NCBI GenBank assembly: GCA_046759305.1 | Contig: JBHIBY010000001.1 | Span: forward strand, 4,339-68,338 | DNA length: 64,000 nucleotides | Direction of reading: 5' to 3' | Origin: Anaerolineales bacterium | GTDB taxonomy: Bacteria; Chloroflexota; Anaerolineae; Anaerolineales; E44-bin32 | Shown: positions 1-5,369 of the stretch, one piece after another | How positions within the stretch are numbered: position 1 is the stretch's first letter | How the letters are laid out: each line of letters opens with the position of its first letter | Position numbers and translations under genes: made by a program | The notes under the pieces: generated by a model | Told to the model about the DNA's origin: nothing | Databases searched by the model: none | Seen by the model: only the letters and a program-made list of their open reading frames with translations

Positions 1-1569
1 TGGGACGCTCTGTCTGGTGAGTGCCAAAGCGGTCGGACTGGATGAACGTTGCAGCGCTGCGAGCCAGGCGTACGCGGTTTCATTGGCGTCACCCGGCCGA
101 ATCACCGTTAGATTGGGGATCGCTCTCAAGCCGGGTAGTTGCTCGATGGGCTGGTGCGTGGGTCCGTCTTCGCCAAGCCCGATCGAATCATGCGTAAACA
201 CATAAATGACCTGCTGACGCATTAAGGCTGCCAACCGAATGGAATGCTTCATGTAGTCGGAGAATATCAGGAACGTCCCTCCGTATGGTATCAAGCCTCC
301 ATAGAGCGCCATGCCGCTCAGCATGCCGCCCATTGCATGTTCGCGCACGCCAAAATGAATGTAGCGGCCTTCCCGATTTTCAAGCGAGAAGGATTCTTCG
401 CCTTGAATGTCAGTCTTGTTCGATCCGGTCAGATCTGCCGAGCCGCCAATCAGCTCTGGCAAGGCTTTTGCCAGGGCGTTCAGCACCTTGCCGGAGGAAG
501 CCCTAGTAGCCATTCCATCGGCATCAAATACAGGCAACTGTGCTTCGATTTCCTGAGGCAGATGCCCTGCCTGCACTCGATCCCAGGTCTCGGCCAATTC
601 TCCGTTCGCAGCGCGATATTCGTTCATCATCTCGAGCCAGGCCCGCCGCTTTTCGCGTCCCTGATCCGCTGCGGAGGCAAAGTGCTCTCCAACATCCTCC
701 GGCACAAGGAACTGTGGTTCTAATGGCCAGCCAAGATTCTCTTTTGCGGCCTCCAGCTCTTCATCTCCCGGTGGCTCGCCATGTGCGGCTGCAGTGTCTT
801 GTTTATTCGGCATTCCGTACCCGATGTGAGTCCTGCAAACAATTAAGGATGGCCTGGGATCCTGCTTTGCAGCAACGATTGCGCGATCGACTTCATCTAG
901 CTTGAGCACGTCTTCGACAAACGATAGGTGCCACCCGTAGGCTTCAAATCGAGCCGCGCGGTTCTCCGTGAAGGTAAGCTCGGTGCTGCCATCGATAGAG
1001 ATGCGGTTGTCGTCATAGAGATAGACGAGGCGTCCTAGCTTTAGATGTCCCGCAAGAGAAGCTGCTTCTGAAGCAATGCCTTCCATTAGATCGCCATCAG
1101 AGACGATGGCATAGACATTGTGGTCAATGATGGGAAAGCCATCGCGATTGTAAGTAGCTGCCATGTGCTCTGCGGCAAGAGCCATACCGGCTCCGTTTGC
1201 AAATCCCTGGCCAAGCGGCCCGGTCGTTGTTTCCACTCCCGGGGCTTCGCCGTATTCGGGGTGGCCGGGTGTCATGCTCCCCCACTGTCGGAATCGTTGA
1301 ATTTCTTTCATCGGCAACTCGTATCCTACGAGATGCAGCATTGAATAGAGCAGCATGGACCCATGTCCGGCCGAGAGCACAAAGCGGTCTCGATTCGGCC
1401 AATTTGGATCTTGAGGGTCGAAATTCATGTGACGCGTCCAAAGGATGTAGGCAAGTGGAGCCACGCCCATCGGTAGTCCAGGGTGTCCAGAATTAGCTTT
1501 CTGTACCGCGTCTGCGGCCAAAAAGCGGATGGTGTTGATAGATCGGTTGGCGAGTTCGGTCTCCGTCAT
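1..1569 (-). CDS. tkt: Transketolase, N-terminal 523 codons (C-terminus runs off the left edge)
   Basis: Absent from the supplied ORF track because it has no stop inside the window. Manual minus-strand translation from the ATG at 1569..1567 is uninterrupted to position 1: [35 protein letters not shown]...[13 protein letters not shown]...[19 protein letters not shown]. These are classic transketolase TPP-binding signatures. Confidence 0.93.
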
Positions 1570-1579
1570 TGCACTCTCA

Positions 1580-2257
1580 CTAGGTGGGTTGTTTGTCCCT
1601 CTCTTCTGGTACGGGAAATTCGGTGCTTAGCCAGGATTTGAGATTCTTGAGGCATTGCACCCCAAGCTTGTGGCCAACGTCGGCTTCGCAAAACGTTACG
1701 GGAACCTCTTCTTTTCGAAGACGTTCAGCATCCGAGCGAGCAATGTCAATTGGAATAAAAGTGTCTTTCGTGCCATGACCCCAGTAAACGGGAATGCCGC
1801 GCAATGGTGAGAGGTCGCCCTTTGGAAGGTGACCTGATATGCCAATAATCCCGGCAGGCGGACGTGACATTGGCTTCATCGAAGCCGCGAAAGACATGGC
1901 GGTCCCATTGCTAAAGCCCATGAGAATCATGCGCTCGCTCGCGATATCGAAATTGACTTCTAAATAGTTAAAAAGTTCCTCGATCAGGCCGATCGCCTCA
2001 TCAAATTCTGAAATCGATGGTGGCCACGCTTTGATGGTTGGATTCCATGCATACCCCCCTTGCAGCACCGCATGAGGTGCCCTTGGCGCCACCACCAAAC
2101 CGGATTTGGGAAGAGCCGATTCGAGGCTCCACATCACATTCTCGTCTCCGCTCAGCCCGTGCAGCATCACAATGGGTGGGATTTGATCGTCCTCGGCCAA
2201 TCTCAGGCGGAAGGCAAGGGGCGCCTGATCGGTGCCCACTTCAACGAATCGGCTCAC
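1580..2257 (-). CDS. Alpha/beta hydrolase, phospholipase/carboxylesterase-like
   Basis: 225-aa ORF with a GTG start preceded by AAGG-N7. It has a GFSNG nucleophile elbow, an HG oxyanion motif ([10 protein letters not shown]) and a C-terminal GHK histidine. It ends 10 nt upstream of the tkt start. Confidence 0.75.
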
Positions 2258-2319
2258 AGCAGAACCTTGGGGATTGATAAAGACGCCCAGTCGGTGCCCG
2301 CCTCAGGGTATCGGCTCAC
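2254..2319 (-). CDS. Mini-ORF (21 codons, [21 protein letters not shown]), paralogous to the esterase N-terminus
   Basis: GTG start at 2319 with AAGG 7 nt upstream. Its TGA stop overlaps the esterase GTG start as GTGA. Translation is unproven. Confidence 0.25.
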   Translation of the reverse strand: MSRYPEAGTDWASLSIPKVLL

Positions 2320-2384
2320 CCGATAACCTTGGAGGGTGGAAGGGGTGTCTTGTCGTGGGATCCTACTTGATCGAATCGGTTCAC
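2316..2384 (-). CDS. Mini-ORF (22 codons, MNRFDQVGSHDKTPLPPSKVIG), paralogous to the esterase N-terminus
   Basis: GTG start at 2384 with AAGG 7 nt upstream. Its TGA stop overlaps the next GTG as GTGA. Translation is unproven. Confidence 0.25.
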   Translation of the reverse strand: MNRFDQVGSHDKTPLPPSKVIG

Positions 2385-2419
2385 AGACTAACCTTTGGGG
2401 TCGGAGAAATTTCGTTCAT
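2381..2419 (-). CDS. Mini-ORF (12 codons, MNEISPTPKVSL)
   Basis: ATG at 2419. The TGA stop overlaps the GTG at 2384 (GTGA). It shares the C-terminal PKV-x-L ending with the other mini-ORFs because it ends inside the repeat unit. Confidence 0.2.
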   Translation of the reverse strand: MNEISPTPKVSL

Positions 2420-2435
2420 CCAAGCCAGTCGAGGA

Positions 2436-2774
2436 TCAATCGGTGTCACCAAGTAAGCGCGCTACGATCAGTTCGGCATCCTTTAGCGGATCTTCCGAGT
2501 GCGGAAGCTCGTGATCCTCGCTAACCTGTTCGGTTAGACGCCCAGCCGCGGATCGTAGTTCTTGCGAGACCTCTGTGTTGCTCTCCAGCCAACGAAGGTG
2601 CGAATAAGCACCTCGACTGCGGCTTTTTGGATAGCTGGTGGCGATGGCCCACCCGGCTGCGCGCCGAGCACACACTCGAGCGCGGCCCTCTTTTCCGTGT
2701 TCCCTTGCAGCCCGAGCGTAGGCAAGCTCGGCCTCGATTCGTGCTCTGGAATCTACCGGCTTTGATGCTACCAC
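2436..2774 (-). CDS. Hypothetical protein, all-helical (possibly a HEPN-like bundle)
   Basis: 112-aa ORF in the track. I recognise no diagnostic motif, and the start codon is uncertain. Confidence 0.4.
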   Translation of the reverse strand: MVASKPVDSRARIEAELAYARAAREHGKEGRARVCARRAAGWAIATSYPKSRSRGAYSHLRWLESNTEVSQELRSAAGRLTEQVSEDHELPHSEDPLKDAELIVARLLGDTD

Positions 2775-2877
2775 AGGGCAGAGTTTCGGTTCCTCGGCTG
2801 ATCCAAACGCATGCGAGGCGAGCCACTTGCCCGCCTCGCGGTTGTCCGCTTTTTGCTATGCCAATTTCATCAATTGC

Positions 2878-3540
2878 TCAGAAAGTAATTCCCACACTCC
2901 CGCGCGCAATATGATCCAAAAATTCCTTGCGGGTCACTTCGTTGTTGGAAAAGGTCCCGCAGAGCGCGCTCGTTACCATACGGGCATTGGCCTTCTTCAC
3001 CCCGCGCATCATCGAACAAAGGTGAAGTCCATCGATCACAACTGCGACTCCATGTGGATGTAACGCAGTTTCCAGAAAGTCTGAGATTTGGCGCGTCATG
3101 CGCTCCTGCACCTGCAAGCGTCTGGCAAATAGATCCACAACCCGCGGAATCTTTGAGAGCCCGATGACTTTGCCTTTAGGCAGATATGCCACGTGGGCCT
3201 TCCCGATGAAGGGAAGCATGTGATGTTCACACATGCTGTAAAACTCGATATCCCTCACCAGCACCATCTCATCATAATCAACATCGAAGATGGCATCGTT
3301 GATCATCTTGTCAGGATCTACACGGTAGCCGGCGAGCAGTTCGTCATACATGCGCGCTACTCGCTCGGGGGTGCGTTGCAGACCTTCCCGACCTATATCT
3401 TCTCCTACAGCTCCAAGGAGCTCGCGCACCGCGTCTTCAATTTCAGGTCGCGTGACTCCCACGCCACCAAAGAGCTCAGCAGCGGCTTCGATCTCCTTCT
3501 TATGTTCAAGGGTATTTAGATGATCGCGTATTTCCGTCAT
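2878..3540 (-). CDS. folE: GTP cyclohydrolase I
   Basis: Has the CEHHMLPF zinc/active-site motif and [14 protein letters not shown] prefer the ATG at 3540, which is preceded by GGAGGATAGC, over the track's TTG at 3552, which lies inside that SD. Confidence 0.93.
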
Positions 3541-3722
3541 GCTATCCTCCAAGATAGTTAGACGCCGTCATGATGTCGGAGCTTACCATAATTCGGTCCG
3601 CACCCAGGGCATCAGCATCGACTGCTCGGTACCGAATAATCTTATCGACAACTTTGAACCTTAGGTATCACAAACAATCGTTTTATGTCGGGCCGCTGTC
3701 ATGCCCGAAGTAGAATACCAAT

Positions 3723-4457
3723 ATGCCTGCGAAATTCAACTTGAAGGGGCATTCCGCGATCGTAACCGGCGCCGGCCGCAGGCTGGGTCGGGCTTTTGCA
3801 GAAGCTCTCGCTAAAAATGGCGCCAACGTTGTGGTGCACTATGGTAGTTCGGCGGAAGAGGCCGAGGAGGTCGTGCGAGGCTTATTGGAACACGGTGTAC
3901 GGGCCACCGAAGTTCAAGCGGATCTCGCTGATCCAGCTGAGGCCATTGAGCTCGTAGGCCGCGCCACAGAAGCCATTGGCGAAGTAGATTTACTGGTCAA
4001 TAATGCGGCAACCTTTGGCCCCGTTGAAGCTCTAGATACCAGCATCGAAGATTGGCAATTGCATCTGAATGTGAATCTAACCGCGCCTTTTTTGATTGCA
4101 CAGCAATTCGCCCGATCTCGGCAAGGTGCGCGAGGTTCAATCGTAAACCTGCTCGATTGGCGCGCATTGCGTCCAGGAGCAGATCACTTCCCCTACACCA
4201 TCAGCAAGGCCGCGCTGGCGGCGCTCACCCGTGGTCTGGCAGTTTCGCTAGCTCCACATATTCGCGTGAACGGACTGGCACTTGGAGCAATCTTGCCTCC
4301 CTCGGATGGCGGTACTGATGACCCGTTGGAGGGGGTGCCTTCTAGGCGGTGGGGGACAGTCGAAGAAGCCATTGAGGCGCTCTTGTTTTTGCTTGCTGGA
4401 CCCGAATACGTGACGGGAGAAATTTTGCATGTCGATGGGGGTCGGCATCTAACTTGA
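3723..4457 (+). CDS. Short-chain dehydrogenase/reductase, pteridine reductase / FolM-like
   Basis: The cofactor motif VTGAGRRLG fits the TGxxxRxG signature of the PTR1/FolM subgroup rather than the canonical TGxxxGxG. It has the YxxxK catalytic pair (YTISK). It lies directly upstream of folB-folK and divergent from folE. Confidence 0.7.
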   Translation: MPAKFNLKGHSAIVTGAGRRLGRAFAEALAKNGANVVVHYGSSAEEAEEVVRGLLEHGVRATEVQADLADPAEAIELVGRATEAIGEVDLLVNNAATFGPVEALDTSIEDWQLHLNVNLTAPFLIAQQFARSRQGARGSIVNLLDWRALRPGADHFPYTISKAALAALTRGLAVSLAPHIRVNGLALGAILPPSDGGTDDPLEGVPSRRWGTVEEAIEALLFLLAGPEYVTGEILHVDGGRHLT

Positions 4458-4510
4458 TCATTCAACAGTCGTAAAATACATTCAACATTTTGAAGAATCG
4501 AGGCTAGTCT

Positions 4511-4870
4511 ATGCCCGAGGACCGCATTCTGATTAAGGATCTGCTGCTGCGGGGCATCATCGGCATCAACGATTGGGAACGCGAAGCAGAACAAGATATC
4601 CTGATAAACATATCGCTAACCACAGATCTCGCAGAGGCTGGCAAAACCGACTCGATCGAACGTTCAGTCAACTATCGGACGATCACCAAACAGATCATCC
4701 ATCACGTGGAAGAAAGCCAGCGATTCACCGTCGAAGCCCTGGCGGCAGATATTGCCAGGATTTGTCTCTCCTATGAGGACGTCACGCACGCCAAGGTTCG
4801 AGTGGAAAAGCCGGGCGCGCTTCGATTCGCGCGCTCCGTTGGAGTCGAGATTGAGCGATCAGCCGGTTGA
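4511..4870 (+). CDS. folB: Dihydroneopterin aldolase
   Basis: 119 aa with a typical N-terminus (ILIKDLLLRGIIGINDWERE) and a typical size. It is followed by folK with an overlap. Confidence 0.85.
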   Translation: MPEDRILIKDLLLRGIIGINDWEREAEQDILINISLTTDLAEAGKTDSIERSVNYRTITKQIIHHVEESQRFTVEALAADIARICLSYEDVTHAKVRVEKPGALRFARSVGVEIERSAG

Positions 4871-5369
4871 ATTAGCCTTTGTCGCCGTTGGATCCAATAT
4901 CTCGCCAGAGGTTCACCTTCCGGCATCGATTGAGCATCTTCACTCCCTGGGTCAGGTGAAGGCAATTTCCAATGCATACAAGAGCAATCCGGTGGGCGGC
5001 AGAAACCAACCCGATTTCCTGAATGCCGCCGTACTTATCGGTGCTACGGAAGAGCCTGCACCCATTCGAGATCATCTGCGGGAAATTGAAAGCGCACTGG
5101 GAAGGGTACGAACCGAAGATAGATACGCTTCCAGAACGATAGATTTGGATCTCGTTATGTACGGGGATCGGGTGGATCCAGAGTTTCCTTTGCCTGATCC
5201 TGAAATCCTGACCCGGGATTTTGTGGCGGTCCCTTTGGCCGAACTTGCGCCAGATTTCTGCCATCCGATCACGGGCGAAGCCCTCGGAGCCATCGCAGCC
5301 CGGCTTAGAAGTAGTGAGCTCCGGCAAGTCGCAAAGCTATCTCAGCGCCTGCTGGATCTCCTGACATAG
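4851..5369 (+). CDS. folK: 6-hydroxymethyl-7,8-dihydropterin pyrophosphokinase (HPPK)
   Basis: Contains AFVAVGSNISP, FLNAAV and RTIDLDLVMYG. I chose the TTG at 4851. The track's start at 4752 would overlap folB by about 120 nt in another frame. Confidence 0.82.
   Translation: MSDQPVELAFVAVGSNISPEVHLPASIEHLHSLGQVKAISNAYKSNPVGGRNQPDFLNAAVLIGATEEPAPIRDHLREIESALGRVRTEDRYASRTIDLDLVMYGDRVDPEFPLPDPEILTRDFVAVPLAELAPDFCHPITGEALGAIAARLRSSELRQVAKLSQRLLDLLT

Follow-up and report, generated by a model that had tools for sequence, protein, structure and literature searches.

A triplicated esterase initiation region with serial GTGA junctions in an Anaerolineales genome: a candidate termination-reinitiation relay

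We have analyzed a 64,000-nucleotide (nt) stretch of contig JBHIBY010000001.1 from an Anaerolineales bacterium (hereafter the window), and this report concerns a short repeat array at the start of an esterase gene that is followed by the transketolase gene tkt. Array and operon are read on the minus strand, as are all coordinates given for them below. In this lineage, a 65-nt segment containing a Shine-Dalgarno (SD)-like AAGGTT, a GTG start codon, a TGA overlapping that start and about 16 esterase codons has been tandemly triplicated. Judged from its sequence, the array has about an even chance of being a serial termination-reinitiation relay that feeds the esterase and tkt. A first-pass annotation of this DNA had described a triplicated initiation module, and its starts, periods, AAGG spacing, open reading frames (ORFs), GTGA overlaps and distance to tkt were all reproduced in our work.

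The GTG starts are located at 2384, 2319 and 2257, giving periods of 65 and 62 nt, and a 7-nt spacer separates an SD-like AAGG from each of them. The three copies are arranged head to tail, measure 62-65 nt and are homologous to positions -15 to +50 of the esterase. The copied segment thus includes the SD and start, as first described, but it spans some 16 codons of the gene and not just the first ~10. Unit A (65 nt, 2335..2399; AAGG 2395-2392, GTG 2384) shows 77% gapped identity to unit C, and unit B (62 nt, 2273..2334; AAGG 2330-2327, GTG 2319) shows 68%. Unit C (2208..2272; AAGG 2268-2265, GTG 2257) is the esterase's own initiation region with the first 50 coding nucleotides. Units A and B are 62% identical to each other, and none of 500 shuffles scored as high as these alignments. 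A repeat search placed a 49-nt core in the three copies with ungapped identities of 76% and 67%, and the array is the sole local direct repeat of at least 30 nt in the window; Tandem Repeats Finder (TRF) detects no array, its copies being too diverged. The motif CCAAGGTT-N5-GTGAGCCGAT has three matches against 0.02 expected in 64 kb, with no match anywhere else in the 64 kb, and no dispersed-repeat copies were found there at up to 3 mismatches. At the unit junctions, only CC/CCT-type matches are visible (...CCACCCT/CCAAGG and ...CAATCC/CCAAGG), blurred by divergence.

The esterase gene (1580..2257) encodes a 225-amino acid (aa) protein of the Abhydrolase_2 (phospholipase/carboxylesterase) family (Pfam PF02230, E=4e-14), and its product is a 100% match to an NCBI entry named 'MAG: alpha/beta hydrolase [Anaerolineales bacterium]'. 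About thirty homologs are likewise 225 aa long and have a common N-terminus beginning MSRY[IV][DE]. Because this N-terminus is conserved in the 225-aa homologs, we read GTG 2257 as the genuine esterase start and the upstream copies as fragments of the gene's own 5′ end.

Both upstream copies open a short reading frame. Mini-ORF A (2384-2316; 22 codons, MNRFDQVGSHDKTPLPPSKVIG) ends in a TGA that overlaps the next GTG as GTGA, and mini-ORF B (2319-2254; 21 codons) ends in the same manner on the esterase GTG at 2257. Upstream of both, a 12-codon ORF beginning at ATG 2419 (2381..2419; MNEISPTPKVSL) closes with a TGA overlapping the unit A GTG. The GTGA sequences at 2384, 2319 and 2257 each end a preceding co-directional ORF, every GTG has an AAGG(TT) 7 nt before it within the upstream ORF, and the four consecutive frames linked by stop-start overlaps in the original description are present as read from the sequence. 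As each period (65 or 62 nt) equals 2 mod 3, the ORF of each copy stops at the TGA of the next GTGA. The presence of the overlap in every unit is largely a matter of geometry, needing one 1-in-3 event and one 3-nt indel.

The overlaps had initially been taken as an argument against random decay of the repeat. As far as the in-frame stops are concerned this argument is weaker than was supposed, given that they follow from the 2-mod-3 periods, but it gains support from the initiation signals. In a three-way alignment of the units, 31 of 57 columns are invariant. All ten positions of AAGGTT and GTGA are invariant in the three units (hypergeometric P=0.001); of the five spacer positions that separate the two, none is invariant (0/5). 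An invariant SD and GTGA around a drifting spacer is what a functioning initiation site classically leaves behind, and we regard the evidence for selection on the copies as moderate. Neutral decay of two copies was also simulated with the observed number of substitutions, the frames being given. The SD, start, TGA and open frames were all retained in 0.8% of runs, and joint retention rises to 2.5% when the changes belonging to a hairpin in unit B are set aside. The mini-ORF peptides themselves show neutral-like changes (7N:4S and 11N:5S, nonsynonymous to synonymous), and no peptide-level constraint was seen on them.

The hairpin in question has 13 bp and lies across the junction of units A and B (2300..2335), with the unit B SD in its 5′ arm and GUG(A) in its 5-nt loop. 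It folds at -16.1 kcal/mol (z=-3.0), and 2 of 200 shuffles fold as well. Eleven of the differences between units B and C fall inside this 36-nt element, and when unit C is given 11 random substitutions, only 0.28% of the mutants match the folding of the unit B hairpin. It is absent from units A and C and from the start regions of 27 relatives. This suggests that the hairpin is derived and unlikely to be accidental. The initiation region of unit A is unstructured (-3.2 kcal/mol), and taken as a whole the 371-nt leader has no excess of structure over its shuffles (z=0.2). Rfam covariance models gave 0 matches between 1500 and 3700 at E<=10. No terminator-like site is found on the minus strand between 2200 and 2460, and the unit B hairpin is without a U-tract.

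An 11-nt perfect inverted repeat was also observed between 2245-2255 (esterase +3..+13, GAGCCGATTCG) and 2113-2123 (+135..+145, codons 45-48, CGAATCGGCTC); the downstream arm at 2113-2123 is in addition 92% complementary to the unit A start region (2371-2382). The idea that this complement forms a conserved, long-range, start-sequestering stem was dropped because it is missing in all relatives, and the repeat is probably due to chance or lineage-specific.

Comparison with relatives indicates that the GTGA junction is older than the array. A gene of 112 codons, ORF112 (2436..2774; stop TGA 2438-2436), was recognized upstream of the array through its tblastn homologs and its AlphaFold2 (AF2) fold; its product has a predicted HEPN-like fold. 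In at least nine distinct loci (L005, L006, L007, L034, L037-L040, L012/L045), the stop of the ORF112 homolog overlaps the esterase start by 4 nt as ATGA or GTGA. The sequence xTGA is present at the esterase start in 31 of 32 distinct loci, and the second codon that follows varies among eight kinds (AGC, AGT, ACG, ACT, ATG, ATA, ATT and AGG) while always beginning with A. In the closer clade, the HEPN-fold gene ends 42-151 nt early and a short upstream ORF (uORF) spans the gap and ends at the esterase TGA. The peptides of these bridging uORFs (MEDLPATYP*, MEDLSTTNP*, MKGLPTNPGSRP, MEYLKAIPGTNL and MERTEAGEELS*) are not conserved across clades; it is translation up to the esterase start that is conserved.

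Frame counts tell the same story. Over the 20 codons upstream of the esterase in 32 loci, the frame terminating at the TGA holds 18 ATG codons and 3 stops, the esterase frame 0 and 29, and the third frame 4 and 41. Within the last 14 codons (intergenic) of 18 close loci, the numbers of ATG codons, starts and stops are 8, 19 and 1 in the TGA-terminating frame, 0, 2 and 7 in the esterase frame, and 0, 1 and 13 in the third. Even in L071, where the HEPN-fold gene is deleted, its remnant start (MVAS...) is fused in the TGA frame, producing a 22-codon ORF that ends on the esterase GTGA. In many relatives an SD is missing from the esterase start, and several of these have a good SD before the uORF (for example, AGGTGAgatctATG in L073 and GAGGAagatatATG in L004). 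The missing esterase SDs, together with the weak SD of the window's own esterase (-3.8 kcal/mol), are consistent with a dependence on coupling.

The window from 2470 to 2370, comprising the ORF112 tail, the ATG-2419 uORF and the unit A start, aligns collinearly with the tail, spacer and esterase start of the relatives. On the basis of this collinearity, we interpret the ATG-2419 ORF as the ancestral bridging uORF, which now feeds unit A and not the esterase; its frame has alternative upstream starts at GTG 2449 and TTG 2452. Taken together, these alignments show an ancestral (G/A)TGA esterase start that doubled as the stop of ORF112 or of a bridging uORF, a standard translational-coupling architecture. 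The GTGA did not arise with the repeat; the junction is an ancestral, family-wide feature that was simply copied when the array multiplied it.

A fourth unit was considered at a GTGA at 2449, which lies 65 nt upstream of 2384 and where GTGACACCGATTGATC resembles GTGAACCGATTCGATC (1 of 500 shuffles). It was rejected, as this part of the sequence aligns collinearly with the relatives' ORF112 tail and spacer. The GTGA at 2449 sits within the LLGD codons of ORF112, and its distance to 2384 equals the repeat period; in L073, a GTGA within LLGD is likewise 65 nt from the esterase start (hand count). The 65-nt spacing could be a coincidence, or it could be the microhomology that seeded the duplication.

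With the aim of establishing copy number outside the window, 69 related loci were fetched from genomes and metagenomes, in addition to the contigs of the four closest proteins, and the -15..+50 segment of each locus was aligned against its own 400-nt upstream flank. Each of the 41 related loci whose upstream flank could be read (esterase 40-78% identical) has a single unit. Self-alignment of the window scored z=10.2, and 21 close loci scored z<=2.0. The other 20 loci are more distant and contain no true upstream repeat; an apparent one in L012/L045 (z ~4) was discarded as a chance match inside the ORF112 homolog. The first-pass annotation had named the copy number in related genomes as the comparison that could refute it. 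This comparison went against it, as a weak test, since the nearest relatives are saturated at four-fold sites: their proteins are 73-80% identical, with differences at 51-68% of the four-fold sites. Closer relatives that might show copy-number intermediates were sought and none was found, the best esterase match being 78% and the best ORF112 match 85%. Based upon these results, the triplication is private to one lineage and younger than the split from any sampled relative. It is also not recent, because its copies are 23-38% diverged, and so the suggestion of a recent slippage expansion is retained as a lineage-specific expansion and abandoned as to its date.

We predict that the array would operate as follows. 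Ribosomes that have finished ORF112 and the ancestral uORF would reinitiate at unit A, terminate on the unit B start and begin again there, and then do the same at the esterase start. One ancestral coupling step would in this way have become a three-step relay to the esterase and then to tkt, 10 nt further on. After fixation of the array, coupling could have reached the esterase solely via intact copies. The SD, start and overlapping stop may have been kept in units A and B because coupling needs intact copies, and the peptides and spacers would have been free to drift. The hairpin in the middle copy might shut its initiation site to free ribosomes, and a ribosome terminating in the loop would melt it, which would be coupling of the RNA-unfolding type. 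The plausibility of termination-reinitiation is supported by published work on -4 overlaps, SD-assisted reinitiation and RNA unfolding (PMC6728339, PMC12548453). Of the two mechanisms offered by the first-pass annotation, such a relay is the best supported; of leader-peptide or attenuator control the sequence gives no sign, having no regulatory codon runs, no terminator, no Rfam match and peptide changes of neutral appearance.

Several observations weigh against a working relay. With its open initiation region (-6.9 kcal/mol, z=-0.3), unit C could start esterase translation without any relay. The SD duplexes of units A, B and C are weak (-5.0, -7.0 and -3.8 kcal/mol, calculated with a generic anti-SD) when compared with -9.3 kcal/mol for the neighboring gene folE. 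A scan for sigma-70 promoters and intrinsic terminators returned nothing relevant on the minus strand and located no promoter. The statistics for selection are post hoc and apply to a feature picked for its ordered look, which makes them suggestive and not decisive. In the close clade, xTGA could persist through a mutationally frozen serine codon (AGC/AGT). The feature rests on one genome lineage, whose two assemblies probably derive from the same reads, and with four-fold sites saturated no relative is close enough to test conservation of the array over time. Furthermore, three serial reinitiations should lose ribosomes stepwise, and the gain over a single junction is not obvious. The more ambitious proposal of a selected, hairpin-gated, multi-stage relay that sets esterase and tkt output relative to the HEPN-fold gene, combined with the birth of uORFs by self-duplication, is in our opinion doubtful.

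Four rivals to the relay were weighed. In the chief one, the array would be a tolerated relic of a neutral or slightly deleterious slippage or unequal-crossover event, a possibility that we consider somewhat unlikely. The upstream copies would then be decaying pseudo-starts that survived as the 2-mod-3 geometry does not block the esterase start, with the conservation of SD and GTGA attributed to chance or to heterogeneity of mutation rate. Such a history fits the single unit in 41 of 41 related loci with a readable flank, the 23-38% divergence of the copies, the neutral evolution of the mini-peptides, the weak SDs and the esterase's own open initiation region, and the in-frame stops require just one 1-in-3 event and a 3-nt indel. 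It is less easily reconciled with an SD hexamer and GTGA that are invariant at 10/10 positions next to a spacer at 0/5 (P=0.001), or with a joint retention of 0.8-2.5% under neutral decay. The unit B hairpin, which needs ~10 concordant changes (0.28% of random mutants), implies selection on the leader, and the survival of ~130 nt of junk through ~25% per-site divergence would be unusual in a compact bacterial operon.

If what matters is the leader RNA and not a relay, the hairpin could be an mRNA-stability or processing element, or a lock that silences a harmful decoy start, and the AAGGTT-N5-GTGAnCCGAT motifs, spaced about six helical turns apart, could bind a regulator protein or small RNA. 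The hairpin is indeed strong and derived, the conserved cores consist of short motifs that recur every 62-65 nt, and occlusion of an upstream ribosome-binding site (uRBS) is a described mechanism (PMC13285730). We nevertheless consider this account improbable. The leader matches no Rfam family and as a whole folds like its shuffles (z=0.2), the motif is found nowhere else in the 64 kb, and descent from the esterase SD and start accounts for it. Moreover, to silence a decoy, one point mutation of its start codon would be a far cheaper solution than a hairpin built from 10 changes that spares both SD and GTG. Leader-peptide attenuation, or a programmed frameshift or read-through yielding an N-terminally extended esterase, would explain serial short ORFs upstream of a biosynthetic or central-metabolism operon, and PLPPS in mini-ORF A could slow ribosomes. 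Against this, neither mini-ORF peptide (MNRFDQVGSHDKTPLPPSKVIG or that of B) has regulatory codon or amino-acid runs, there is no terminator/antiterminator and no U-tract after the unit B hairpin, the junctions are without slippery sequences, and the homologs are uniformly 225 aa with the same N-terminus, so that the sequence itself goes most of the way to refuting this reading and we think it very unlikely. Since the source is a metagenome-assembled genome, an assembly or sequencing artefact was also considered. We regard it as least probable of all: an independent Logan assembly (L075, SRR29324599) is 100% identical over window positions 1-4541 (4541 nt), array included, and copies that differ at 23-38% of positions are not collapsed or expanded reads.

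If the relay works, the array is a natural junction iterated three times, with one copy locked in a hairpin and with diverged flanks, and it would serve as a test bed for termination-reinitiation and particularly for distinguishing 70S/30S scanning from RNA unfolding. It would also represent a route of uORF origin in which a gene's own initiation region is duplicated in a frame that preserves coupling. If the array is merely a relic, it would still illustrate how reading-frame geometry filters which 5′ duplications survive. The wider locus points to a conserved and previously undescribed operon logic of Anaerolineae, with a small HEPN-fold protein coupled to an Abhydrolase_2 esterase and transketolase.

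By tblastn, about 40 loci have an ORF112 homolog (42-85% identity) as the immediate upstream neighbor of the esterase, and at matched loci ORF112 is better conserved than the esterase (for example, 85% versus 73% in L001). ORF112 has no Pfam, NCBIfam or PDB-sequence match and no match to Pfam HEPN models. Its AF2 model (pLDDT 88) consists of five helices, and the top Foldseek matches in the PDB are 1wol, 1o3u, 2hsb and 1ufb (TM 0.55-0.67, probability 0.98-1.0), with weak E-values of 0.06-0.35. We predict on this basis a HEPN-like fold that does not have the canonical Rx4-6H spacing; the distances from an invariant R79 to the near-invariant H88 and H92 are 8 and 12 residues. The invariant motifs of the family are G-x-EG-R-ARV-x-ARRAAG and LPH..DP..DA. 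Based on these comparisons, ORF112 is a member of an unannotated, strongly conserved family of Anaerolineae/Chloroflexota (homologs in L001-L045 and others). Its position right before the esterase in nearly every case, frequently with a 4-nt stop-start overlap, suggests that the HEPN-fold protein and the esterase work together.

The HEPN-fold gene has been deleted in the loci of three of the closest relatives (L070:352-519, L071:1796-1955 and L072), which keep its first ~6 codons (VVASKP/MVASQP) joined to the spacer. Sequencing run SRR29324599 is the source of L071 and L072 as well as of the population to which the window belongs. In eight relatives (L002, L004, L023, L024, L028, L032, L033 and L073), the gap from the HEPN-fold stop to the esterase is a multiple of 3 (42, 51 or 54 nt), which places the two genes in the same frame. 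A 364-aa protein from JGI (P0018) is an in-frame HEPN-esterase fusion with a sense codon in place of the HEPN stop. These two observations could reflect stop read-through or an ancestral fusion. A small hairpin, (G)ATCTC-CAGNN-GAGAT(C), is located directly 3′ of the HEPN-fold stop in L073 (728-750), L074, L001 and L071, and in L073 it overlaps the uORF SD (AGGTGA). The version in the window has diverged to GATCC...GGATG. This hairpin may gate initiation of the uORF.

On the other side of the esterase, tkt is represented by its 5′ part (1..1569; Pfam Transketolase_N and Transket_pyr) and runs off the window. Its ATG at 1569 is 10 nt past the esterase stop; relatives have either the same 10-nt gap or a 4-nt overlap. 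Positions 2878-5369 hold a pterin/folate cluster composed of folE followed by divergent SDR, folB (dihydroneopterin aldolase-like) and folK-like ORFs, and L071 has the folB, SDR and folE part of this layout in common. The likely true start of folE (GTP cyclohydrolase I) is ATG 3540, preceded by the SD GGAGGA, and not the listed TTG 3552. Just past folE, at ~2815-2850 on the minus strand, a GC-rich hairpin (CGCGAGGCGGGCAAGTGGCTCGCCTCGC) is conserved in L070/L071. It was not called by a simple terminator scan because it has no T-run. It is likely a folE terminator or an operon boundary, and as a boundary it would put the promoter of ORF112, the esterase and tkt between the hairpin and 2774.

Among known systems, the closest are gene pairs with -4 overlaps (ATGA/GTGA) that are coupled by termination-reinitiation (Huber et al. 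2019, PMC6728339; reviewed in PMC12548453). The array resembles them in its co-directional ORFs, its xTGA overlaps and the SD-like motif in the 3′ end of each upstream ORF, and in structure its junctions belong with such pairs; in relatives, the junction of ORF112 and esterase is a textbook example, and the unit B start within a hairpin corresponds to the RNA-unfolding model of such pairs. Unlike these pairs, the junction in the window is repeated three or four times in series, and the intermediate 'genes' are 21-22-codon fragments of the 5′ end of the downstream gene and not functional proteins. Conservation of the overlap in homologous loci likewise holds for the ancestral junction only, the duplicated junctions being private to the window.

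The array is also similar to bacterial uORFs coupled to a main ORF, such as the iraD uORF (PMC5574718) and the uRBS/uORFs of S. meliloti (PMC13285730), in that translation of a short ORF would bring ribosomes to a main ORF downstream whose SD is weak or absent. The bridging uORF of relatives and the ATG-2419 uORF of the window fit this pattern. As differences, no trans-acting regulator such as CsrA is implicated here, and the extra uORFs come from a duplicated main-ORF initiation region and did not arise de novo.

Slipped-strand mispairing and unequal crossing-over are established mutational routes to tandem duplications, which are usually short-lived or in frame. The array shares with them its head-to-tail copies and a private copy-number difference from relatives. 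It departs from the usual case because it spans an SD and start, shifts the frame by exactly the amount that recreates the stop-start overlap, and has lasted to 23-38% divergence with its functional core intact. Yeast GCN4 has four uORFs, which are spaced and non-overlapping and act through eukaryotic scanning with eIF2-dependent regulation. The likeness to the array, namely serial short uORFs passed by reinitiation before a main ORF, is an analogy only. The trpL/hisL attenuation leaders are similar in having short ORFs in an operon leader, but with neither codon runs nor a terminator/antiterminator the window is not a member of this class. On its sequence, the array fits neither the attenuation leaders nor the known structured RNAs nor, within the 64 kb, the dispersed repeats. 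A full-text literature search found no precedent for a serial relay or for duplication of an initiation region that creates coupled uORFs. What is unusual in comparison with these systems is the serial iteration of the junction, together with the origin of the extra uORFs from the main gene's own initiation region.

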